Shown here one piece after another: positions 5,752 to 57,356 of a stretch of DNA of 64,000 bases; position 1 is the stretch's first letter; every line of letters starts with the position of its first letter. Source of the stretch: Candidatus Pacearchaeota archaeon (GTDB taxonomy: Archaea; Nanobdellota; Nanobdellia; Pacearchaeales; GW2011-AR1). The DNA lies in contig JAFCDB010000001.1 of the NCBI GenBank assembly GCA_017609885.1, forward strand, positions 6,732-70,731, given 5' to 3'. The notes under the pieces were generated by a model that did not search any database, had not been told where the DNA came from, and worked only from the letters and a program-made list of their open reading frames with translations. The position numbers and the translations under genes were made by a program.

Positions 5752-6036
5752 TTAAAGATTTACAAGTTGTCTGTCTATATGTCCAAGTGAAATTTGCCCA
5801 CCATTTAGTCTTTTTACGCTTTCTTTAATTAATTCTTCTGCTTCTTCTGAAACTTCAGTATACATTCTTAAAACATCATCAATTTTATTATAAAACAATG
5901 CCAGTTGTGAAGCATGTTCTTGATATTCAGAGGGATTAAGTAAAAGTACTTTATATTTATTATCTTTAATTCCTATAAAAACTTTGTGACCCCTTTAAAT
6001 TCTTCTTTTACAGCATCTTTAAATTCTCTTATCATG
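5752..6036 (-). pseudogene. Small gene interrupted by a frameshift (MIREFKDAVKEEFKGVTKFL* then IGIKDNKYKVLLLNPSEY...GHIDRQLVNL in another frame)
   Basis: My translation of the minus strand: 20-aa reading frame from the ATG at 6036 terminates, and an open 74-aa frame continues offset by +2; neither piece reaches the ORF-track threshold. Confidence 0.2.
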
Positions 6037-6125: not shown

Positions 6126-7421
6126 ATGAAAGAAGATGCAGAGCACAAAGAACTTTTGAAAAAAATGTCAAAGGTAAAAATGAGTGCGCCAAAAGGTAAA
6201 AATAATTTGAAAAGCAATGTTGAACTTGGTAGAGATTTGGATTTGTATATAGTTAGCGAGATTGTCGGCGGTGGTTTGCCGTTGTTTACTCCAAAAGGGG
6301 CTGTGATAAAAAGAGAGATTGAGAGATTTGCAACAGATGAAGAAATTAAAAGAGATTATCTTCATACTTCAACGCCTTTTATGGCTAAATCAGATTTATA
6401 CAAAGTTTCAGGACACTGGCAACATTATCAGAAAGATATGTTTTGTTTGAATGTGGGAAAAGAAATTTTTGCCTTGCGTCCGATGACTTGCCCTTTTCAT
6501 TTTGTTTTATACAAAAGGAAGCCAAGGAGTTACAAGGAACTTCCTTTGAAATATGCTGAAGTTTCTACAATGTTCCGAAATGAACAATCTGGGGAATTAA
6601 GAGGATTGACAAGAGTGAGGCAAATGACATTGACAGATGCGCATATTATCTGCACGCCTGAGCAATTAGAAAAAGAATTTGAGAAAGTTTTGGATTTATT
6701 AAAATATACAATGGACAAACTTGGAGTTAAAGATATTTGGTACAGATTTTCAAGGTGGGACCCTAAAAACAAGGGAAAATATATTGATAATCCTCGGGCT
6801 TGGAAAGATTCTGAAGAAAAAATGAAGAAAATTTTAAATAAATTAAAAGTAAAATACAAAGAAGCAAAAGATGAGGCAGCGTTTTACGGCCCTAAATTAG
6901 ATTTGCAATATGAAGATGTTTATGGAAAAGAAGATACATTGTTAACTGTTCAAATTGATTTTGCACTTCCTGAGAGATTTGACCTAACTTACAAAGACAA
7001 AAAAGATAAATTGCAACATCCGATTATTATTCATCATTCTTCAACAGGCACTACAGAAAGAATGATTGCATATCTTTTGGAAAAAAATCAGGGGACGCTT
7101 CCAATGTGGCTTTCCCCAATCCAAATTAGAGTGATAAATTTTACTGATAGGAATAATAAATATGCAGAGATGGTTGTTGAGAAGATTAAGGCAGGAATTC
7201 CTGATGTGAGAATTGATGTTGATTTTGATACTGTTCCTTTAAGAGGGAAAATTCGAAATGCAGGAATGCAAAAAATTCCTTATATTATTGTTGTTGGGGA
7301 TAAGGAGGAAAAAGCAAAAACAATTGCTGTTAGAAAAAGAGGGGATAAGAAAATTAATTCAGAAAGTGTAGAAAAGTTTATTAAAGAAATTAAATTAGAA
7401 ATTGAGGAGAGGAAATGTTAA
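6126..7421 (+). CDS. thrS: Threonyl-tRNA synthetase, catalytic plus anticodon-binding domains only (no N-terminal editing domain)
   Basis: Class II motif 2 region FALRPMTCPFHFVLYKRKPRSYKELPLKYAEVSTMFRNEQSGELRGLTRVRQMTLTDAHIIC matches ThrRS (RPMNCPGH...SYRELPLR...E.SG.L.GL.RVR.F.QDDAHIF); 431 aa. Confidence 0.8.
   Translation: MKEDAEHKELLKKMSKVKMSAPKGKNNLKSNVELGRDLDLYIVSEIVGGGLPLFTPKGAVIKREIERFATDEEIKRDYLHTSTPFMAKSDLYKVSGHWQHYQKDMFCLNVGKEIFALRPMTCPFHFVLYKRKPRSYKELPLKYAEVSTMFRNEQSGELRGLTRVRQMTLTDAHIICTPEQLEKEFEKVLDLLKYTMDKLGVKDIWYRFSRWDPKNKGKYIDNPRAWKDSEEKMKKILNKLKVKYKEAKDEAAFYGPKLDLQYEDVYGKEDTLLTVQIDFALPERFDLTYKDKKDKLQHPIIIHHSSTGTTERMIAYLLEKNQGTLPMWLSPIQIRVINFTDRNNKYAEMVVEKIKAGIPDVRIDVDFDTVPLRGKIRNAGMQKIPYIIVVGDKEEKAKTIAVRKRGDKKINSESVEKFIKEIKLEIEERKC
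7365..7417. repeat. 53-bp perfect direct repeat, copy 1 (last 53 nt of thrS including its stop region)
   Basis: AGTGTAGAAAAGTTTATTAAAGAAATTAAATTAGAAATTGAGGAGAGGAAATG is identical at 7365-7417 and 8006-8058. Confidence 0.9.
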
Positions 7422-7472
7422 TAGAAAAATATTTAAACTCTAATTCACTTACTTGTAAGTGATATAACTTAC

Positions 7473-7685
7473 ATGGAATTATTAATGAGCAAGCACGCAC
7501 ATGAACAAGCACGTGAGAGGGGCGTTAGCATTAATGAGATAAAAGAAGCTATCCAAAGAGGATCAAAATTTCTCCAAGGAAATAAAGTAGTTTCAAATTA
7601 TAGGCATATTAAAATAGTATTTAAAAAAATGAAAAATAAATTTTTTGTTGTAACAGTCATGATAAGGAAAGAAAATGAAAGATAA
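7473..7685 (+). CDS. DUF4258-family small protein (putative toxin of a two-gene module)
   Basis: 70 aa; N-terminus MSKHAHEQARERGVSINEIKEAIQRG fits the DUF4258 pattern (sKHA..rm.eRgIs..ei.eai..G); 11-nt overlap with the downstream gene. Confidence 0.5.
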   Translation: MELLMSKHAHEQARERGVSINEIKEAIQRGSKFLQGNKVVSNYRHIKIVFKKMKNKFFVVTVMIRKENER

Positions 7686-8007
7686 ATGTGTTTTATGCGG
7701 TGGAACTTTGAAAAAGAAGTTAGTCAACTATGAAATTTATGGAAAAAGTATAGGAAAATTTTCTGCATTAGTATGTGATTCTTGTGGAGAACAGTGGTTT
7801 GATGAGAAAACATCTAAAAAAATACAAGAAGTTGAAAAGAAAAAAGGACTTTTTGGACTTTCAGTAGAAACAAAAGTTAGTTATTCAGGCAATTCACTTA
7901 TAATTAGAGTTCCAAAAAATTTAGCAGAATTTATGAATATTAAAAAAGAAACAAGAGTAACTTTATATCCTGAAAATAAAGACAAGATTTGTGTGATGAT
8001 AAAATAG
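7675..8007 (+). CDS. YgiT/MqsA-type zinc-ribbon protein with C-terminal swapped-hairpin (AbrB/SpoVT-like) segment; putative antitoxin
   Basis: CVLCGG...18 aa...CDSCGEQWFD zinc-ribbon at the N-terminus; C-terminal IIRVPKNLAEFMNIKKETRV resembles an AbrB-type DNA-binding hairpin. Confidence 0.5.
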   Translation: MKDKCVLCGGTLKKKLVNYEIYGKSIGKFSALVCDSCGEQWFDEKTSKKIQEVEKKKGLFGLSVETKVSYSGNSLIIRVPKNLAEFMNIKKETRVTLYPENKDKICVMIK

Positions 8008-8058
8008 TGTAGAAAAGTTTATTAAAGAAATTAAATTAGAAATTGAGGAGAGGAAATG
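8006..8058. repeat. 53-bp perfect direct repeat, copy 2 (ATG at its end now starts ORF 8056..8550)
   Basis: Identical to 7365-7417. Confidence 0.9.
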
Positions 8059-8550
8059 AAAATACAACCATACTTTGAAAAATTAAATGAATCAAAAAAG
8101 TTTCAGAACTTTAAATCAAAAAATCCAAAAGCATTTTTTTCAGCAGGATTTTTTGTCCTGGATTTTGTAGAAAAGAAAAACCTTCATCAGTTGGATTATT
8201 ATCTTCCTGAAGAAAAAAAAATGACGACATTTATGCTTGATGGAAATGTTGAGATGAAAAAAAGCGAGATTTCTGGAAAAGGAACTCCAAAGGAAATTCA
8301 GGGAGATATTAAATTAGATTTAGATATTTTAAAAGGAATTGTCGAAGATGAAATGAAAAATCACACAATTACTCATAAACTTCATAAGATAGTTGCAATT
8401 ATTCAAAACCTCAACGGGAAATTAATTTGGAATTTAAACTGCATTACAAGCGACATGGGAATTATAAAAGTTCATATTGATGATGCAACTCATTCTGTTT
8501 TGAAATTTGAGCCGTTGAATTTGTTTGATATTGTAAAGAAGTTGAAGTGA
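8056..8550 (+). CDS. Hypothetical protein
   Basis: 164-aa ORF, no recognisable motifs. Confidence 0.4.
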   Translation: MKIQPYFEKLNESKKFQNFKSKNPKAFFSAGFFVLDFVEKKNLHQLDYYLPEEKKMTTFMLDGNVEMKKSEISGKGTPKEIQGDIKLDLDILKGIVEDEMKNHTITHKLHKIVAIIQNLNGKLIWNLNCITSDMGIIKVHIDDATHSVLKFEPLNLFDIVKKLK

Positions 8551-28381: not shown

Positions 28382-28768
28382 CTATTCAATTTCTCCCTTT
28401 CCACTCTCTGTCCCCTCCCCTTCCTCATCCCGAGGATTAGCAAGCTCCATAATTTCTCCTTCCTCTGCAATTTCCTTTTCCTCCTCAATTTCTTTTTCAA
28501 TTATTTCTTTGTCTTTATTTTTAGGTTCTGCAGTTTTCTTAATCTTCACACTTTTCTTAGCAGGCATTGGCTGTTTAACTGTAATTGGCAAAACATCATT
28601 TTCAAATTCAACTTTAGCAATTTCCATAGGATCATAATTCAATTTTTCTAATTTGCTTTTTTCAATTTTTTTCAAAAGCGGAGCATCCATTGCAATCTGT
28701 AAAGCCCTGGCTCCTAAAACCCGCGTCTTCTCATACTTTGTTAACTCATGTGCTTTTGGTTCTGCCAT
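28382..28768 (-). CDS. rpoK: DNA-directed RNA polymerase subunit K (Rpo6/RpoK) with acidic C-terminal extension
   Basis: LTKYEKTRVLGARALQIAMDAPLL...DPMEIAKVEFENDVLPITVKQ matches the RPB6/omega-like core. Confidence 0.7.
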   Translation of the reverse strand: MAEPKAHELTKYEKTRVLGARALQIAMDAPLLKKIEKSKLEKLNYDPMEIAKVEFENDVLPITVKQPMPAKKSVKIKKTAEPKNKDKEIIEKEIEEEKEIAEEGEIMELANPRDEEGEGTESGKGEIE

Positions 28769-28819
28769 TATGTAAATTCCCCCAGGAATTTATATCTTGA
28801 AAATTTCCTTATTTTCATT

Positions 28820-29236
28820 TTAATATGCTGCAAATTTTCCTTCTTCATCTTTTGCAATATGATAACCAAATAATTCTTCAACAAATTCTCCATTTTCATC
28901 AACTTGTTCTGCAACTACATATAAATTTGTTCCACCAAAATAATCTGAAAATTCGGTTATAATTTCAATAAGATTTTTAATAGGTGCTCCTAACTGAAGA
29001 GCATGTCTTTCTTTGTGCACTTCAAAATTTAAATTTCCTTCGCCAACAAGATTCCAAAAATCATTTGTTTTATAACCTTTAAATTCTCCTTCACCTACAT
29101 ATACTGCAAATCTAATAGGAATTTTTCCATTATTAATAATTAGTTTTGTTGAATTTTTCAAAATCATTGAACTCATTTGATTATGAAGTCTTTCTTTTTT
29201 AATCTTCCCCTCTTCAAATACAATTAAACTTTCCAT
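28820..29236 (-). CDS. Hypothetical protein downstream of rrp42
   Basis: 138-aa ORF in the exosome operon; no assignment. Confidence 0.35.
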   Translation of the reverse strand: MESLIVFEEGKIKKERLHNQMSSMILKNSTKLIINNGKIPIRFAVYVGEGEFKGYKTNDFWNLVGEGNLNFEVHKERHALQLGAPIKNLIEIITEFSDYFGGTNLYVVAEQVDENGEFVEELFGYHIAKDEEGKFAAY

Positions 29237-30067: not shown

Positions 30068-30771
30068 CTGCTTCCCTCCACTGCTTGTTTCAAAGCTTTT
30101 TTTTGAATTTCATAGATTTTCTTTGTAGCTTCTCGTCCTAACTTAACTGCTTCTTTTAATTCTTTAGTTGAAATCTTTCCGTCTAACTGAATATGTGAAA
30201 TCTCATCGATACTATTCAAGAATGTCAAAGCAATATCTGTAGGGCCTTCGCCTCCTTCATAATCCTCCTCTGCCTTGTCAACATCAACAACTAATGTTTT
30301 GTCTATCTTTCCTATTGAAACGCTGGTTGCAATATCCCTCATTGGAATTCCTGCGTGAGCAAGTGCCATTGAAGCTGCGTTAATTCCTGCGCAACGAGTT
30401 GAAGCATCTGCCTGCGGAATCATAATATGAACATCAATAACAGTATTAGGAAATTCGTCAATCATAACACTTTTATTCAAAGCCCATTCAGTAATCTTTG
30501 AAATTTCAGTAGACCTTTTTGACGGTCCAGGACGAATTCTATCACTAACAGAAAAACTCATCATATTATAATTGCATCTTAATATCCCTTTTTCAGGATT
30601 TTGTAGGTGTTGTGGGTGAAGTTGATGAGGGCCGTAAACAGCAGCAATTGCAACTGTATCTCCAAATGAAAACATCGCACTTCCGTCTGCATTTGGAACT
30701 ACGCCGACTTTTGCTTTTATTTCACGCGCCTGTTCAAATTTCCGTCCGTCGCTTCGTTTTGTGTATGCCAT
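30064..30771 (-). CDS. rrp41: Exosome complex exonuclease Rrp41 (RNase PH)
   Basis: RSDGRKFEQAREIKAKVGVVPNADGSAMFSFGDTVAIAAVYGP... and C-terminal PH domain. Confidence 0.8.
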   Translation of the reverse strand: MAYTKRSDGRKFEQAREIKAKVGVVPNADGSAMFSFGDTVAIAAVYGPHQLHPQHLQNPEKGILRCNYNMMSFSVSDRIRPGPSKRSTEISKITEWALNKSVMIDEFPNTVIDVHIMIPQADASTRCAGINAASMALAHAGIPMRDIATSVSIGKIDKTLVVDVDKAEEDYEGGEGPTDIALTFLNSIDEISHIQLDGKISTKELKEAVKLGREATKKIYEIQKKALKQAVEGSR

Positions 30772-30822
30772 TATGTAAATTGTTCCTGGAATTTATATCT
30801 TAAAAAGTTTCTTTTTTTCATT

Positions 30823-31005
30823 TTAATGTTTTGTTTCTCCTCCATATTCATATCTATCCCTTTCTTTATCATTTAAACTTTTCCACCAATTATTGGCATT
30901 TTTTTCTCCCTGCTCTTTTTTTATTCTTTCATATTTTGCTAATATTCCTTCATTTATTTTTCTAGGTGTTCTGCTAAATTTTTCTAATAAACCTTCTAAT
31001 ATCAT
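30823..31005 (-). CDS. Small hypothetical ORF between rrp4 and rrp41
   Basis: 60-aa ORF overlapping the rrp4 stop by 4 nt. Confidence 0.2.
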   Translation of the reverse strand: MILEGLLEKFSRTPRKINEGILAKYERIKKEQGEKNANNWWKSLNDKERDRYEYGGETKH

Positions 31006-53778: not shown

Positions 53779-53869
53779 GTCCCTGTAGTTCAGTCAGGAT
53801 AGAACATGACCTTGCGGTGAGTTTGCTCGCGAATAGGTCAAGACCGCGGTTCAAATCCGTGCAGGGGCG
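53779..53869 (+). tRNA. tRNA-Arg (anticodon GCG) with a ~17-nt intron in the anticodon loop
   Basis: Hand-folded: acceptor GTCCCTG/CAGGGGC, D-arm GTTC...GAAC, anticodon stem TGACC...GGTCA separated by TTGCGG plus TGAGTTTGCTCGCGAAT(A); T-arm CGCGG-TTCAAAT-CCGTG. Confidence 0.55.
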
Positions 53870-53887
53870 TTTTTGCGGGAGCAAACA

Positions 53888-53996
53888 GGCTTTGGTGAAA
53901 TCATAGGATATATAACATTTTTCTCAATTTAAAATCTACATTGCGAGACAAATCACGTCGAGCAATGCTGGGCGGGCGGGTAGGGAATTGAGAAAA
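53888..53996. repeat. 109-bp perfect direct repeat, copy 1 (contains internal inverted repeat TTTTCTCAATT...AATTGAGAAAA)
   Basis: Identical to 57189-57297. Confidence 0.9.
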
Positions 53997-54058
53997 TTGA
54001 AATTTATTAATTATTATAACTTAGGTGCAGATAAGTTTTGTTTGTTCTTAAGTTATTT

Positions 54059-54274
54059 CCCCTCATAGCTCAGTGGTTAGAGCGCTTGGCTGTAGAAATA
54101 AAGGGGACCTAAGGTTCACCTTTATCAAACCCTCCTAAAAGAGGACAACCTTCGGTTGTCTTATAAGGAGAGTTGCGATTAGGGCGGACGTTCCATTGGA
54201 TTAGAATGAAACCTGATTAGCCGAAAGTTCGTGCAGAACCCGAGAGATCCCCGGTTCGAATCCGGGTGGGGGGA
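54059..54274 (+). tRNA. tRNA-Tyr-like (anticodon GTA) with an unusually long (~144 nt) intron
   Basis: 5' exon CCCCTCA-TA-GCTCAGTGGTTAGAGC-G-CTTGG-CTGTAG...; 3' exon C-CCGAG-AGATC-CCCGG-TTCGAAT-CCGGG-TGGGGGG-A pairs with it (acceptor, anticodon and T stems all consistent). Confidence 0.5.
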
Positions 54275-54282
54275 TTTATCTT

Positions 54283-54298
54283 CCAAAAAATTTAAAAA
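54283..54298 (+). promoter_or_regulatory. BRE/TATA motif CCAAAAAATTTAAAAA, 26 nt upstream of the ATG at 54320 (leaderless)
   Basis: Same 16-mer (one mismatch) recurs at 54846 and 55631. Confidence 0.4.
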
Positions 54299-54319
54299 TC
54301 TTCTTTTTCATGTAAGAAT

Positions 54320-54517
54320 ATGGAAATTCAAACAAAGGACATAATGGATGAACTTAGGCAGATAAGAATTGATATTGAAATAATCAAGGATAATATGCCT
54401 GATAAAGAAATGTTCTTGACAGCAGATGAAGAAGTCTTATTTGAAAGAAGTTTTGAAAATGAGAAAAATGATGAGCTTATTTCTTCTGAAGAATTAAAAA
54501 AAGAGTTGGAGATATGA
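54320..54517 (+). CDS. Putative antitoxin of the RelE-like module
   Basis: 65-aa acidic ORF overlapping the toxin start by 4 nt. Confidence 0.4.
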   Translation: MEIQTKDIMDELRQIRIDIEIIKDNMPDKEMFLTADEEVLFERSFENEKNDELISSEELKKELEI

Positions 54518-54771
54518 AATTTTCCATTGATTATGATAAACAACCAATTAAGTTTCTTAAAAATCAAAATAAATTTATAACAAAAAGGATTATTGAAAAA
54601 ATAGATTCATTATTAGTAAATCCAGTTCTCAGCAATGCAAAACCGATTGTTGAGAAACACAATTGTTTTAGAATAAGAATAGGAAATTATCGCGCTTTGT
54701 ATAGGATTAATTATAAAACTAAAATCATTATAGTATTCAAATTAGATAAGAGGGAGAAAGTTTATAATTAA
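54514..54771 (+). CDS. relE: RelE/ParE-family type II toxin
   Basis: KHNCFRIRIGNYRALYRINYKTKIIIVFKLDKREKVY matches the RelE C-terminal signature. Confidence 0.65.
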   Translation: MKFSIDYDKQPIKFLKNQNKFITKRIIEKIDSLLVNPVLSNAKPIVEKHNCFRIRIGNYRALYRINYKTKIIIVFKLDKREKVYN

Positions 54772-54845
54772 TAAATGATTTACTAATAATAAATCCCTAT
54801 AAGAAACAAACTAATAATTCTGTTATGGGCAGAGGATTGAATGTT

Positions 54846-54861
54846 CCAAAAAACTTAAAAA
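54846..54861 (+). promoter_or_regulatory. BRE/TATA motif CCAAAAAACTTAAAAA, 26 nt upstream of the ATG at 54883 (leaderless)
   Basis: Motif recurrence and spacing. Confidence 0.4.
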
Positions 54862-54882
54862 CACCCAACCACTGAATTAATC

Positions 54883-55227
54883 ATGGCGAAAGAATGCGAA
54901 TTTATGTACGATGATTTTTCAGACAGACTTTTTATTTCTTGTAAAAAAGATTCTGATATGATTGCTGGAAGCGTAAGGTTGCTGAATTTAGTTGTGGACT
55001 TTACAACAGATAATAAGGTTGTTAATGTTGAAATTATTGGGGCTTCTGATTATTTAGAATCAATCGGGTTTGATTCTTCTATTTTAAATAAGTTAATTTC
55101 TGTTGATTTGGTTTTTCAGCAAAAAAGAAATGGATATATGATTTATTTTATTCTTCATAGTGAATCTCAAACTCAGAGAATTCCTTATAATTTAATAACT
55201 GAAAATCCTTCGATGATTAACGCTTAA
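54883..55227 (+). CDS. Hypothetical protein
   Basis: 114-aa ORF. Confidence 0.35.
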   Translation: MAKECEFMYDDFSDRLFISCKKDSDMIAGSVRLLNLVVDFTTDNKVVNVEIIGASDYLESIGFDSSILNKLISVDLVFQQKRNGYMIYFILHSESQTQRIPYNLITENPSMINA

Positions 55228-55549
55228 ATCTTTTTTCTAAACTTCTTTTATATTCTATTGCATGTATGATTAAAACTTTGTTGTTTTTTGGACAGGTCGC
55301 TATTGAAAAATAAATGTTGTTACTTAATTTGTAAAATAATTCGTATCCTAAATCTCCATATTTTAATCTTTCTTTTTCTATTTCATATACTTTTTCAAAT
55401 TGCGGGAAAATTTCCAAAACTTTCTGATGTTCTATTCCTTTTTTAAGAATTCCAAATTTATAATATTCTGTAAATATCAATCTTTTCCCTTTAATTTTTT
55501 CAGTTATTATTTTATCAATTTCTTTTTTGTCTGTGATTAATTCAACCAT
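55217..55549 (-). CDS. Hypothetical protein
   Basis: 110-aa ORF, convergent with 54883..55227. Confidence 0.35.
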   Translation of the reverse strand: MVELITDKKEIDKIITEKIKGKRLIFTEYYKFGILKKGIEHQKVLEIFPQFEKVYEIEKERLKYGDLGYELFYKLSNNIYFSIATCPKNNKVLIIHAIEYKRSLEKRFKR

Positions 55550-55630
55550 AATTGTTTTAATATTTTAATATATTTAATTGTTTTTGATTCGGGAATTTAG
55601 GAGATTTAATTATGGGGAATGAGGAATTTT

Positions 55631-55646
55631 CCAAAAAACTTAAAAA
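55631..55646 (+). promoter_or_regulatory. Third copy of the CCAAAAAACTTAAAAA motif, with no ORF at the predicted TSS
   Basis: Identical to the 54846 copy; predicted TSS near 55668 lies in non-coding sequence. Confidence 0.3.
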
Positions 55647-55832
55647 TATTATTAATTCAACCTCAAAATAAAAAACATTAAAATAATTTCAAAACGCGAT
55701 ATTATTTTAAAGAATTTTTTAGTTTAAATATTTTTCTACAGATTTTTTATTTTAATCGGCTATAAAAAAGTTTAAAAAGGGAATATATTTATGAAAGATA
55801 TTAATCAAATAGATTAAACAAAGAGGTTTACA

Positions 55833-55943
55833 ATGTCAGAAATTGAATTAGAACAATTTAATGAGGAAATGGACGATGAAGAACTTTTAAAAGGTGGTAC
55901 AGAAGAGGTTGAGGATTTTCTTGATTTTGATGATGACGAATAA
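55833..55943 (+). CDS. Small (36 aa) extremely acidic ORF, doubtful
   Basis: My translation: MSEIELEQFNEEMDDEELLKGGTEEVEDFLDFDDDE. Confidence 0.2.
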   Translation: MSEIELEQFNEEMDDEELLKGGTEEVEDFLDFDDDE

Positions 55944-56008
55944 TTTTTTCTTTTTCTTTGTTTTTTTATTTACATTAATTATATAAATAATCTTTTTTTT
56001 GAAAAGAT

Positions 56009-57184
56009 ATGTTAATTGGATTAATTGGAAGGCCGAATGCAGGGAAGTCAACGTTTTTCAAGGCTGTAACTATGGCAGATGTTTTGATTGCGAATTATCC
56101 TTTTGCGACGATTAAGCCGAACACCGGAGTTGCTTATGTTAAAATTCCTGATTTGGCTGCGGAGTTTGGGAAAGTATCTGAACCTCGGGAAGGTTATGTA
56201 AAAAATAAGTGGAGGTTTGTTGGTTTTGAATTGATGGATGTTGCAGGATTAGTGGAAGGAGCTAGTGAGGGCAAAGGATTAGGAAATGAATTTCTAAATG
56301 ATTTGGCAAATGCAAATGCATTTATTCACGTTGTTGATATGTCTGGGGAAAGTGACGGGGAAGGCAAACCTACAGAAAATTATGATCCTTGTTTGGATAT
56401 TAAAATTATTGAAAGAGAATTGGATTTATGGTATCTTGGAATTTTTAAAAAAGTGTGGAGAACTTTTTCGCGGACAGTTGAAGCTAAGAAAAAAAATTTT
56501 GCCGAGGCTGTTGCGCGGCAATTTTCTGGATTAAAAGTTAGTGAAGGAGATGTAAAGGAAGTTGTTTTGAAAAGTGGGTTAGATGTTGAGCATCCAGCGA
56601 AGTGGAGAGAAGATGAAATACTGAAGTTTGCGTCTATGTTAAGGAAAATTTCAAAGCCAATGATAATTGCGGCGAACAAAGTTGATCGTCCTAATGGAAA
56701 GGAAAATTTTGAAAAGGTGAAAGAAGAATTTGATTACCCTATTGTTGCGTGTTTTGCAGAGGGGGAATTGGCTTTGAAAGAGGCTGATAAGCATGGGTTG
56801 ATAAATTATGTTCCTGGAGAAAAAGATTTTAAAGTTTTGAAAAAGGGGAGTGAAAAACAGTCGGAGGGGTTGAAAGTGATTAAAAAAGTTATGAGGGAGT
56901 TTAAGGGAACCGGGGTGCAATCAGTTCTTGATAAAGTTGTATTTGATGTTTTAAATTATATTACTGTTTATCCTGCTGGTTCTAAACTTGTTGATTCGCA
57001 GGGACGGGTTTTGCCTGATTGTTTTTTAATGCCTTCTGGTTCGACTGCGTTAGATTTTGCTTTTAGATTGCATAGTGACATTGGGAATGGTTTTGTTAAA
57101 GCAATTGATATTAAGACGAAAAGAGCTGTGGGCAAGGATTATGTTTTGAAGCAAGGGGATGGTTTAGAGATTATGGTGAGATGA
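56009..57184 (+). CDS. ychF: YchF/Ola1-type Obg-family GTPase/ATPase with C-terminal TGS domain
   Basis: G1 GLIGRPNAGKSTFF, then ANYPFATIKPNTGVAYV (YchF-specific), DVAGLVEGASEGKGLGNEFL (G3), helical insertion, C-terminal TGS. Confidence 0.7.
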   Translation: MLIGLIGRPNAGKSTFFKAVTMADVLIANYPFATIKPNTGVAYVKIPDLAAEFGKVSEPREGYVKNKWRFVGFELMDVAGLVEGASEGKGLGNEFLNDLANANAFIHVVDMSGESDGEGKPTENYDPCLDIKIIERELDLWYLGIFKKVWRTFSRTVEAKKKNFAEAVARQFSGLKVSEGDVKEVVLKSGLDVEHPAKWREDEILKFASMLRKISKPMIIAANKVDRPNGKENFEKVKEEFDYPIVACFAEGELALKEADKHGLINYVPGEKDFKVLKKGSEKQSEGLKVIKKVMREFKGTGVQSVLDKVVFDVLNYITVYPAGSKLVDSQGRVLPDCFLMPSGSTALDFAFRLHSDIGNGFVKAIDIKTKRAVGKDYVLKQGDGLEIMVR

Positions 57185-57188
57185 AAAG

Positions 57189-57297
57189 GGCTTTGGTGAA
57201 ATCATAGGATATATAACATTTTTCTCAATTTAAAATCTACATTGCGAGACAAATCACGTCGAGCAATGCTGGGCGGGCGGGTAGGGAATTGAGAAAA
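57189..57297. repeat. 109-bp perfect direct repeat, copy 2 (starts 4 nt after the ychF stop)
   Basis: Identical to 53888-53996. Confidence 0.9.
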
Positions 57298-57356
57298 ATG
57301 TCCAAAGCCATGAAAAGAAGCATATAAATATTTAAAAAAGTTCTTTTAGTAGATTT

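Follow-up and report, generated by a model that had tools for sequence, protein, structure and literature searches.

The end of the threonyl-tRNA synthetase gene (thrS) of a Candidatus Pacearchaeota archaeon is present twice, as direct repeats that bracket a small toxin-antitoxin (TA) module, and the second copy runs into the start of the next gene. This locus raises the question of whether such perfect repeats date the insertion, as a sequence-only reading of the DNA had held, and of how a module could settle between two tightly joined genes with both of them left intact. The analysis was centered on a stretch of 64,000 nt from contig JAFCDB010000001.1 (the window) and extended to loci of relatives, which are cited by handle (L001 and so on) where they must be told apart.

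Two copies of the thrS tail around a two-gene module

The window contained the 53-mer AGTGTAGAAAAGTTTATTAAAGAAATTAAATTAGAAATTGAGGAGAGGAAATG at two places and no others, 7365-7417 and 8006-8058; all 53 positions agreed, with no mismatches (Table 1), and none of 100 dinucleotide-preserving shuffles gave a match. Identity did not extend further on either side: the bases at 7364/8005, to the left, were A and T, and those at 7418/8059, to the right, were T and A. Copy 1 comprised the last 17 codons of thrS, which then ended in ...EERKC-TAA; copy 2, if read as thrS, would end in ...EERK-TGA, and its ATG at 8056 started the downstream gene. That the terminal ATG of copy 2 serves as this start was supported by the homologues, which aligned from residue 1 with an invariant M1, and both flanking reading frames were intact, as the sequence-only reading had stated. 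The module between the copies measured 588 nt (7418-8005) and held the DUF4258 and YgiT-type open reading frames that had been described there (7473-7685 and 7675-8007, overlapping); the last two bases of the antitoxin stop codon, TAG, were the first two bases of copy 2. No composition anomaly was seen across the cassette. Elsewhere in the window, a second repeat-bracketed island of 3.3 kb, which carried a RelE-like gene, adjoined a tRNA gene.

Table 1. Features of the thrS locus, numbered from the first nucleotide of the window
Feature	Positions	Strand	Description
thrS	6126..7421	+	Short-form threonyl-tRNA synthetase, 431 aa, no editing domain; TIGR00418, 472 bits; Pfam tRNA-synt_2b and HGTP_anticodon
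Repeat copy 1	7365..7417	+	Functional thrS tail, final 53 nt of coding sequence before terminal TGT-TAA
Putative cassette promoter	7423..7437	+	Purine-rich BRE-like AGAAAAA, then TATA box TATTTAAA; ~40 nt before toxin ATG
Palindrome	7445..7462	.	TCACTTAC-TT-GTAAGTGA, between TATA box and start codon
Extra half-site	7467-7472		ACTTAC
Predicted toxin gene	7473..7685	+	70 aa, DUF4258, RelE/BECR fold; 11-nt overlap with antitoxin start
Predicted antitoxin gene	7675..8007	+	110 aa; N-half, four-cysteine YgiT/MqsA-type zinc ribbon; C-half, AbrB/MazE/SpoVT-type DNA-binding domain
Repeat copy 2	8006..8058	+	Displaced thrS tail (relic); also matched by thrS-tail profile
BRE/TATA-like element in copy 2	8013-8027		GAAAAGTTTATTAAA
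Downstream gene	8056..8550	+	164 aa, conserved Pacearchaeota protein of unknown function; 155 homologues
Occupied left junction			...GAGAGGAAATG / TTAATAGAAAAATA
Unoccupied site, as for window			CAGAA + 53-mer + AAAATACAACC; also written AATTCAGAA + 53-mer + AAAATACAACCATAC
Hypothetical circle junction			...GTGATGATAAAAT + 53-mer + TTAATAGAAAAATA

The downstream protein had no Pfam or NCBIfam match. Its gene lay on the same strand as thrS, with thrS upstream, in 58 of 70 species loci, and comparison of the loci indicates that it is the ancestral neighbor of thrS. The gap between the two genes was at most 60 nt in 17 of these 58 loci, and in L002, L005, and L016 the thrS stop overlapped the downstream start (ATGA). 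This empty thrS-ATGA-downstream state bore out the proposal that the module was inserted at the thrS 3' end, although the empty sites in relatives could equally be secondary losses. In the window, copy 2 held not only the BRE/TATA-like element but also a purine-rich stretch, GGAGAGG, and the downstream gene's ATG; since the distance from TATA to ATG (~38 nt) is like that of the cassette promoter, copy 2 is suggested to carry putative promoter and ribosome-binding signals of the downstream gene.

Three properties of the repeat segment were considered and rejected. The last 53 nt of thrS were not specially conserved, their mean pairwise identity being 72% versus 61 to 78% in neighboring segments. 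The 53-mer did not form an attC-like hairpin (-0.5 kcal/mol; z = 0.03 versus shuffles). The window thrS, whose shortness was judged by length comparison with relatives, was a mosaic in its identity profile, with residues 1 to 330 from one lineage and 331 to 431 from another; the mosaic is real, but its breakpoint at about residue 330 lies far upstream of the repeat, and a thrS tail from a lineage other than that of the thrS body was therefore discarded as the cause of the repeat.

The toxin-antitoxin cassette

The first protein of the module matched PF14076 over residues 5 to 63 (35.5 bits; cutoff, 25), and all 107 of its 107 homologues carried this domain. Its structural model (pLDDT 93.4) had as top PDB matches nearly exclusively RelE/YoeB/YafQ/ParE/HigB toxins (TM 0.55 to 0.71; Foldseek probability of ~1), yet with E values of only 3e-3 or weaker. 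In the literature, DUF4258 figures as a BECR-fold TA toxin family whose target is listed as unknown, with recorded DUF4258-MqsA fusions (PMC11980606), and the family is assigned to the colicin-like branch in a 2026 preprint. We predict that this protein, which has a RelE-like modeled fold, is toxic.

The second protein proved to be composite. It matched the YgiT finger model TIGR03831 above the cutoff (27.1 versus 20.2 bits), C5, C8, C34, and C37 were invariant across 41 homologues, and the N-domain of its model matched the MqsA N-domain structures 3ga8, 3hi2, and 3gn5. The C-half of the model matched the MazE/VapB structures 1ub4, 2mru, 1mvf, and 5l6l, with a sequence match to MazE_antitoxin below the cutoff (21.9 versus 24.7 bits), while the full-length MqsA model TIGR03830 scored 16.7 bits against a cutoff of 61.8 and no XRE-type helix-turn-helix domain was found in the protein. 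The module had been read as a DUF4258 plus YgiT/MqsA pair; the DUF4258 and YgiT assignments both stood, but the antitoxin was not MqsA-like throughout. The module resembles DUF4258/MqsA type II modules in its toxin-first gene order, as in mqsRA, and in the N-domain of the antitoxin, which corresponds to the toxin-binding zinc ribbon of MqsA; the antitoxin differs from MqsA, which has a C-terminal XRE helix-turn-helix, in its AbrB/MazE/SpoVT-type C-domain. A sequence search of solved structures gave nothing meaningful, the matches having come from the fold search, and PADLOC defense models matched neither the toxin, the antitoxin, nor the downstream protein.

Toxin and antitoxin genes were adjacent in more than 50 loci; orphan antitoxins occurred, but no orphan toxin was seen. 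Cassette relatives with a source name were found only in DPANN archaea. Upstream of the toxin gene, the BRE/TATA element recurred at equal distance in ~45 distinct cassettes and is a putative cassette promoter. The palindrome was likewise kept in ~45 cassettes and its arms covaried (TCACTTAC/GTAAGTGA versus TAACTTAC/GTAAGTTA); the palindrome region TCACTTACTTGTAAGTGA may be the operator for the AbrB-type antitoxin.

The duplicated arrangement is shared by related lineages

The sequence-only reading had taken perfect repeat identity to imply a recent insertion. This was not supported, because the same duplicated arrangement was present in related genomes, a finding that the reading itself had named as counting against it. 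At least five lineages belonging to the same clade as the window carried the cassette followed by a thrS-tail relic, with repeat identity ranging from ~55% to 91%. The relic came right after the antitoxin in the window, L071/L150-154, L077, L051, L078, L081, L001/L080, and L075, and all relics began at one same profile position. The downstream genes of L001, L051, L078/L081, and L150/L071 were 62 to 75% identical to that of the window, placing these loci in its clade, and the antitoxins of L001, L051, L078, and L150 were 71 to 76% identical to the window's; cassette and host genes have therefore diverged to a similar extent. The best match overall to the window's antitoxin was 77% and that to its toxin 84%; among cassettes with known context, the closest antitoxin was 76 to 78% identical, which likewise counts against a recent insertion. 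The thrS-site cassettes formed one clade in the antitoxin tree. Repeat identity was 52/57 in L071, 46/52 behind trpS in L076, and 20/20 at a tRNA gene in L113.

The antitoxins of L001 and L078 were 88% identical and those of the window and L001 only 71%, although the window and L001 are the closer pair by the downstream gene, which hints at horizontal exchange. A congruence test that correlated the pairwise identities of the antitoxin or the toxin with those of the downstream gene gave no information, in that the control, thrS C-domain versus downstream gene, was equally weak (Spearman, 0.39). The cassette was missing from ~12 lineages of the same clade (L002-L016), so a model of long residence needs many losses or repeated transfers.

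How repeat copies can become identical was seen in a sister population. L150 and L151 were identical over 2,955 nt except for 15 differences, all of which fell at 2195-2222, in the functional thrS tail. There, a 28-nt tract of L151 was the sequence of the relic 661 nt downstream, and L153 and L154 retained the unconverted form of the thrS tail. The L151 tract is a gene conversion between the relic and the functional thrS copy. As conversion can make copies identical, the 53/53 identity in the window does not date the insertion. Gene conversion between the copies is the most likely source of that identity, and re-acquisition from a near-identical relative is less likely. This conversion, the only one documented, spanned ~28 to 37 nt; an identity of 53/53 requires a tract covering every position that differed earlier.

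A second comparison showed that the two copies need not share an origin. The thrS gene of L051 was 82 to 92% identical to that of L011, its unoccupied counterpart, up to TATAGAAAAGTT, and only ~57 to 65% identical beyond it, whereas the L051 relic was identical to the functional L011 tail at 50 of 50 positions. The term "target duplication" used in the sequence-only reading was therefore too simple: the repeats are indeed made of the target's tail, but in L051 the copy that completes thrS carries a foreign tail, and the original tail has been displaced to the distal position. For the window itself, the downstream-gene, antitoxin, and ThrRS proteins each formed a cluster of one, the translation of the toxin from 7473 was absent from the protein collection, an exact look-up of contigs with the downstream protein gave no record, and the nearest relative of the downstream gene was 75% identical; with no close relative of this genome in the databases, neither conversion nor a recent insertion is demonstrable in the window as such. 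Taken with its relatives, the locus is best explained by an old insertion and not a fresh one.

Origin of the arrangement and known systems

The junction between thrS and the downstream gene was a hypervariable hotspot that also hosted other TA pairs and a LAGLIDADG endonuclease (PF14528, 56.8 bits), whose gene abutted the thrS stop and was followed by a displaced thrS tail in L001, L027, L036, and L046. The endonuclease relics measured 104 nt in L001 (BLAST) and 71 to 72 nt in L027/L036 (profile), with a weaker 51-nt match in L046. Compared with L078, the last 77 nt of L001 thrS were foreign, so that the endonuclease element brings its own thrS tail, and L001 had two thrS relics, one from this element and one from the TA cassette. 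The cassette family also lay behind trpS (L076, 52-nt repeat) and behind an intron-containing tRNA gene (L113, 20-nt repeat), the latter found by Rfam (5' truncated, with intron) and missed by ARAGORN. No dual-function argument explains the 20-nt repeat at the L113 tRNA. The view of the sequence-only reading that no integrase accompanies the cassette was supported: no integrase, transposase, or other recombinase was present among the tested or Pfam-annotated genes at ~50 cassette loci and in the hotspot gaps, where the large open reading frames encoded radical SAM, phosphorylase/PRTase, serpin, Fic, peptidase, and similar proteins.

We consider it somewhat more probable than not that an old, widespread Pacearchaeota TA cassette resides at the thrS-downstream junction, with the dual-function tail present twice and made identical by conversion. 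Ancestrally, thrS and the downstream gene would have overlapped (ATGA), and the last ~53 nt of thrS would have done double duty as the ThrRS C terminus and as the start signals of the downstream gene (TATA-like box, purine-rich stretch, and ATG). An insertion at such a junction would be viable only with the tail segment present twice, the proximal copy finishing thrS and the distal relic driving the downstream gene. The cassette would be self-sufficient, with its own BRE/TATA promoter, palindromic operator, RelE-fold toxin, and antitoxin; the operator would presumably be bound by the AbrB-type half, and the zinc ribbon would presumably neutralize the toxin, as in MqsA. Were the cassette lost, as could happen if the two copies recombined, stable toxin would be freed, and we infer that such addiction could explain its persistence. 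Relatives may have exchanged the cassette through ordinary recombination via thrS and the relic, or it may have excised and then re-integrated across the repeats.

It is conceivable, if doubtful, that the cassette is instead a mini integrative element, a CIME-like satellite that is still mobile. The 53-mers would be attL and attR, and the perfect repeats would mean that it had integrated recently, from a donor of near-identical sequence. Excision would yield a 641-nt circle bearing a single copy of the thrS tail, which would enter the thrS tail of a different cell; both steps would depend on short-homology recombination or on a recombinase encoded elsewhere. Direct repeats of a target gene's 3' end, here 20 to 57 nt, are the classical mark of site-specific integration, and they were found at three targets, thrS, trpS, and the intron-containing tRNA. 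The L051 junction lay exactly at a 13-nt core, where thrS had acquired a foreign (L078-like) tail and the tail native to the host had been displaced; cassette length was nearly constant (588 to 590 nt in the window, L076, and L113); unoccupied sites existed in relatives; and cassette and host genes could be incongruent, as between L087 and L076 (antitoxin, 83%; toxin, 86%; downstream gene, 29%). Against this stand the lack of any integrase, transposase, or recombinase at the loci surveyed and the failure to find the cassette, or antitoxin relatives, on viral contigs. The spacers varied, from 5 to 40 nt between target stop and TATA and from 0 to 25 nt between antitoxin stop and relic, so that the cassette ends look like functional limits and not like a fixed recombination site. 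Furthermore, the site tracks cassette phylogeny, which makes site switches rare, and conversion is able to produce the repeat identity. A broader proposal, that this is an undescribed minimal archaeal mobile cassette of ~590 nt that lacks a recombinase, sits behind translation-apparatus genes (thrS, trpS, and tRNA), and makes or carries a 20-to-57-nt duplicate of the target 3' end by neither classical transposition nor known integrase-encoded integration, seems rather improbable to us.

A true target-site duplication, in which a transposase-like or repair process inserted a linear cassette of ~590 nt at staggered nicks 20 to 57 nt apart and the overhangs were filled, is unlikely. Target-derived repeats at three unrelated targets and the near-constant cassette length would fit it, as would the 2-nt overlap between antitoxin stop and repeat in the window (TAG/AG), L076 (TAA/AA), and L113 (TGA/GA), which resembles microhomology joining. 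However, neither terminal inverted repeats (at 7418 and 8005) nor a transposase was present, the repeats varied in length, and a duplication of 20 to 57 nt is far beyond the range known for transposases. Moreover, the copies in L150, L051, and L078 differed like orthologous functional tails of different lineages, the relic kept an intact thrS-like frame, unlike decaying copies of one sequence, and mismatches in L071 and L076 were polar and not uniform. We give as little credence to the idea that the cassette is all that is left of a larger plasmid or virus, which used its own integrase to enter the thrS tail and later lost everything except the addictive TA pair. Integrative elements often carry TA pairs, which are the hardest part for them to lose (PMC5704250), the repeat geometry fits attL and attR, and the RelE-bearing island next to the tRNA in the window would be in keeping with it, but elements decaying independently would not end up as one and the same minimal unit at thrS, trpS, and tRNA, and no larger integrase-bearing intermediate appeared in ~50 loci. 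An assembly artifact, that is, a spurious duplication from repeat collapse or mixed strains, is hardly credible. Only one contig carries the exact sequence and the repeat is short and perfect, but the junctions at 7417/7418 and 8005/8006 both need spanning reads, and the independent assemblies L071/L151, L150, L051, L078, L081, L001, L077, and L076 show the same architecture with nonidentical repeats, which cannot arise from k-mer collapse.

The cassette at the thrS junction shares features with several known systems. In having no integration genes, and in that successive arrivals leave displaced target ends (two relics in L001), it resembles CIMEs as defined previously (PMC5704250) and tandem accretion at a target 3' end in bacterial integrative elements; it differs in that it has no known integrase-bearing counterpart, measures only ~590 nt, and resides in archaea without known conjugation. 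Integron cassettes are likewise small, promoter proximal, often TA pairs, and gathered at one chromosomal site, but here there is no IntI, the cassette has its own promoter, and the repeats come from the target gene. Free-standing homing endonuclease genes insert at the 3' end of host genes and bring a surrogate C-terminal segment, as in organelle genes such as atp6 of Allomyces. The foreign-tail/original-tail asymmetry of the TA cassette in L051 is of this kind, and LAGLIDADG genes occupy the same locus in relatives; however, the window has no endonuclease gene, and the fold of the toxin is that of RNases rather than of DNA endonucleases. Literature searches yielded the CIME definition and the DUF4258 classification; neither this locus nor TA cassettes with duplicated gene tails in DPANN archaea were found described there.

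DPANN genomes are tiny and so tightly packed that neighboring genes share sequence, and this locus shows how selfish genes enter and stay in them: a second copy of the shared segment comes with the inserted pair, leaving the essential synthetase and its neighbor unharmed, and a homing endonuclease uses the same trick at the same place. The locus also carries a warning, since identical flanking repeats are routinely taken as a sign of recent insertion and a sister population shows conversion creating such identity. Gene flow and accessory-gene turnover in Pacearchaeota might be tracked with the thrS-downstream junction as a marker locus, and the conserved, compact promoter-operator-TA unit offers a candidate tool as well as a test case for archaeal TA biology, a subject hardly studied in DPANN.

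The repeat and the cassette between its copies

The 53-nt repeat at the 3' end of thrS occurs exactly twice in the window, with no mismatch in 53 positions; its identity ends sharply at both the left and the right border, and dinucleotide-preserving shuffles of the window contained no match to it. This upheld the exact duplication described in the sequence-only reading. Past copy 1, thrS continues with TGT-TAA, so that the protein ends ...EERKC*; copy 2 reads ...EERK-TGA. The ATG at 8056, inside copy 2, had been proposed as the start of the downstream gene (the conserved Pacearchaeota gene next after thrS), and this was borne out, since alignments of its homologues begin at residue 1. The copies enclose 588 nt with two overlapping ORFs, here called the cassette.

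Coordinates of features in the window and in loci of relatives (L numbers)
Feature	Sequence	Position	Remarks
thrS	window	6126-7421	TIGR00418, 472 bits; ends with copy 1
Repeat, copy 1	window	7365-7417	
Repeat, copy 2	window	8006-8058	
Purine-rich stretch and TATA box	window	7423-7437	5' of toxin ORF
Palindrome, 8+8	window	7445-7462	5' of toxin ORF
Toxin ORF	window	7473-7685	DUF4258, 35.5 bits (cut-off 25)
Antitoxin ORF	window	7675-8007	YgiT zinc-finger model, 27.1 bits (cut-off 20.2)
Downstream gene	window	8056-8550	164 aa
Possible broken gene	window	5752-6036	minus strand; 48-aa ORF at 5752-5898
95-nt direct repeat	window	28754-28848; 30757-30851	
Second island	window	53779-57300	
Intron-containing tRNA gene	window	53779-53869	
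Island repeat copies	window	53889-53998; 57190-57299	
RelE/ParE-like ORF	window	54514-54771	85 aa
LAGLIDADG endonuclease gene with displaced thrS tail	L001	1626-2925	all four: opposite strand, overlaps thrS stop; 375-377 aa
	L027	1129-2400	
	L036	1331-2609	
	L046	2480-3786	
58-85-aa protein family	L001	3324-4004	
	L051	3460-3880	
	L150	2904-3116	
	L007, L010, L011, L012, L015, L050		

The structure model of the toxin (pLDDT 93) superposes on the RelE, YoeB, YafQ and ParE toxins. DUF4258 has been classed as a BECR-fold toxin-antitoxin (TA) toxin with its target listed as unknown, and fusions with MqsA-type antitoxins are on record (PMC11980606); its status as a BECR-fold TA toxin is also treated in a 2026 preprint. 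The assignment of the pair as DUF4258 plus a YgiT/MqsA-like antitoxin stood for the toxin and for the zinc finger of the antitoxin, whose four cysteines are invariant among 41 homologues, and did not extend to the full MqsA model, which fell below its cut-off (16.7 versus 61.8 bits). In the antitoxin structure model, the first half resembles the MqsA N-domain and the second half resembles MazE, AbrB and VapB. Together, the profile scores and models point to a RelE-fold toxin with a hybrid antitoxin, predicted to bind the toxin through an MqsA-like ribbon and DNA through an AbrB-type domain. The upstream layout of purine-rich stretch, TATA box and palindrome was found in about 45 distinct cassettes of other contigs. 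The palindrome, with arms that change together (TCACTTAC/GTAAGTGA versus TAACTTAC/GTAAGTTA), looks like a putative operator for a dimeric repressor.

The ThrRS of the window has a mosaic make-up. Over residues 1-330 it shares 67-85% identity with L042, L050 and L054 and 18-55% with other relatives; the anticodon-binding domain (residues 331-431) has its best matches in L008, L015 and L006 (60-80%). At 431 aa, it lacks the N-terminal editing domain found in most relatives (560-580 aa), and the L054 enzyme is likewise short (435 aa). Between a 130-aa ORF and thrS, a minus-strand stretch resembles a small frameshift-broken gene and may be what is left of a further small module 5' of thrS. Farther along lie a direct repeat of 95 nt, its two copies 77% identical and spaced by 2003 nt, and a second island bracketed by a direct repeat of about 108 nt without mismatch (spacing, 3301 nt); copy 1 of the latter repeat starts about 20 nt past an intron-containing tRNA. 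As read from the sequence, the island interior would hold, besides two small ORFs, a RelE/ParE-like ORF and a gene for a YchF/OLA1-like GTPase, with the stop of the GTPase gene abutting copy 2.

The junction between thrS and the downstream gene

Alignment of the downstream protein yielded 70 species-level loci from Pacearchaeota and related DPANN archaea, and thrS lay upstream on the same strand in 58 of them. Between the thrS stop and the start of the downstream gene, the spacing ranged from -4 nt (an ATGA overlap in L002, L005 and L016) to more than 3000 nt and was 60 nt or less in 17 loci. These results indicated that the adjacency is ancestral and that the junction is a hypervariable hotspot. 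Its gaps hold TA pairs of the HicAB and VapBC types, a serpin, genes for a GNAT and a Fic protein, and tandemly arranged members of one family of 60-85-aa proteins. Four loci have a LAGLIDADG endonuclease gene that adjoins the thrS stop. None of the gaps yielded an integrase or a transposase.

Proteins of 58-85 aa starting MxxH(I/L)Rx(I/V), a family with no Pfam match, are encoded singly or in tandem between thrS, or its displaced tail, and the downstream gene. Orphan antitoxins without a toxin are common, as thrS-ATGA-antitoxin (L088 and L140-L149) or antitoxin-ATGA-downstream gene (L049, L072 and L090), with L001 also listed among such loci; one variant was indexed in 37 blocks of the collection, and 24 contigs were read. 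Gene junctions recurrently take the form RAAAATGAAA, and junction duplications of 11-13 nt (L003, AGAGAAAATGAAA; L006, ATAAAATGAAA) suggest that this start context may offer microhomology for deletions and insertions.

Displaced tails, conversion and age

Immediately 3' of thrS, homologues of the TA pair (antitoxins 62-78% identical) were present at four species loci and at 16 or more metagenome loci, often with the downstream gene next. With a thrS-tail profile, displaced, nonfunctional tails (relics) were detected immediately 3' of the antitoxin in the window, L071/L150-L154, L077, L051, L078, L081 and L001/L080, all with a common starting point some 53 nt upstream of the stop. The window's own clade includes L001, L051, L078 and L150 (downstream gene 62-75% and antitoxin 71-76% identical to the window's), and in the antitoxin tree the cassettes at the thrS site group into a single large clade, the window's lying beside the L150 family and L072. 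Thus, the duplicated arrangement is shared and old, a finding that the sequence-only reading had itself specified as refuting a recent insertion. Base composition shows no anomaly across the cassette, and the nearest cassette with known context has an antitoxin at most 76-78% identical (best toxin match overall, 84%), which is compatible with long residence without proving it.

The thrS genes of L051 and its unoccupied counterpart, L011, are 82-92% identical up to TATAGAAAAGTT. Beyond it, the functional tail of L051 is about 57-65% identical to that of L011 and resembles the L078 tail, and the L051 relic matches the functional L011 tail at 50/50 positions. The copy on the thrS side can therefore be of foreign origin, and it is the distal one that represents the displaced original. 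The same holds for the endonuclease element. In L001, whose pre-endonuclease state is L078, thrS ends in 77 nt with no relation to the corresponding end of the L078 gene, and BLAST placed the former tail behind the endonuclease gene as a 104-nt relic; the element thus brings a surrogate gene end. Displaced tails of 71-72 nt (by profile) follow the endonuclease gene in L027 and L036, with a weaker 51-nt match in L046.

Over 2955 nt, L150 and L151, which stem from different samples, differ at only 15 positions, all at 2195-2222 in the functional thrS tail. There, a 28-nt tract of L151 has the sequence of the relic that lies 661 nt further downstream; in L153 and L154 the tract is as in L150, and one extra base, 2222, matches neither parent. 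The tract reflects gene conversion over a short patch, with the relic as donor and the functional copy as recipient, or recombination of equal effect, and the pair is a clean natural example of such conversion in a DPANN population. Repeats with only a 10-nt identical start before diverging thereby became 52/57 identical; the polar mismatches in the L071 and L076 repeats are compatible with conversion tracts. Therefore, the 53/53 identity in the window can be secondary, and perfect identity, earlier taken as a sign of recency, loses that meaning.

Travel and maintenance of the cassette

Over long times, the cassette does travel. A sister clade lies behind trpS (L074, L076, L089, L093 and L155-L157), in L076 with flanking 52-nt copies of the trpS tail (46/52 identical); a more distant member, L113, lies 3 nt after an intron-containing tRNA gene (repeat, 20/20); and others follow co-oriented epimerase, radical-SAM, PfkB, DHH and AAA-ATPase genes, where repeats were not detectable. 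Some pairs are at odds with their host genes, as between L087 and L076 (antitoxin, 83%; toxin, 86%; downstream gene, 29% identity). All named sources of TA-pair homologues are Pacearchaeota or Nanoarchaeota, and no antitoxin relatives were found on viral contigs.

The 53-mer contains GAAAAGTTTATTAAA about 38 nt before the ATG, followed by a purine-rich stretch and the start codon; this element is like the BRE/TATA elements of this organism's promoters, in the geometry of the cassette's own promoter. We infer that the thrS tail may also serve as the signal for expressing the gene that follows. If so, only insertions keeping two copies of the tail would survive, and trimming of the relic down to that signal could produce the common left boundary. 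The 20-nt repeat at the tRNA gene in L113 falls outside this account.

We lean towards an addictive cassette of long standing, placed at a gene junction with a dual use, a cassette which toxin addiction would maintain, which homologous recombination or repeat-mediated excision and integration would exchange, and whose repeats conversion would re-homogenise. A satellite still mobile without an integrase seems rather doubtful. A true long target-site duplication is improbable, as is, to the same degree, a decayed larger element; an assembly artefact is very hard to credit for an arrangement that relatives share. The TA type of the cassette is already known, and its integrative logic at thrS resembles that of cis-mobilizable elements (CIMEs), which are integrative elements without integration genes, and of endonuclease cassettes. 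Apparently undescribed are the DPANN hotspot between thrS and the downstream gene, the documented conversion event and the way in which two kinds of selfish element share a reliance on gene-tail duplication.
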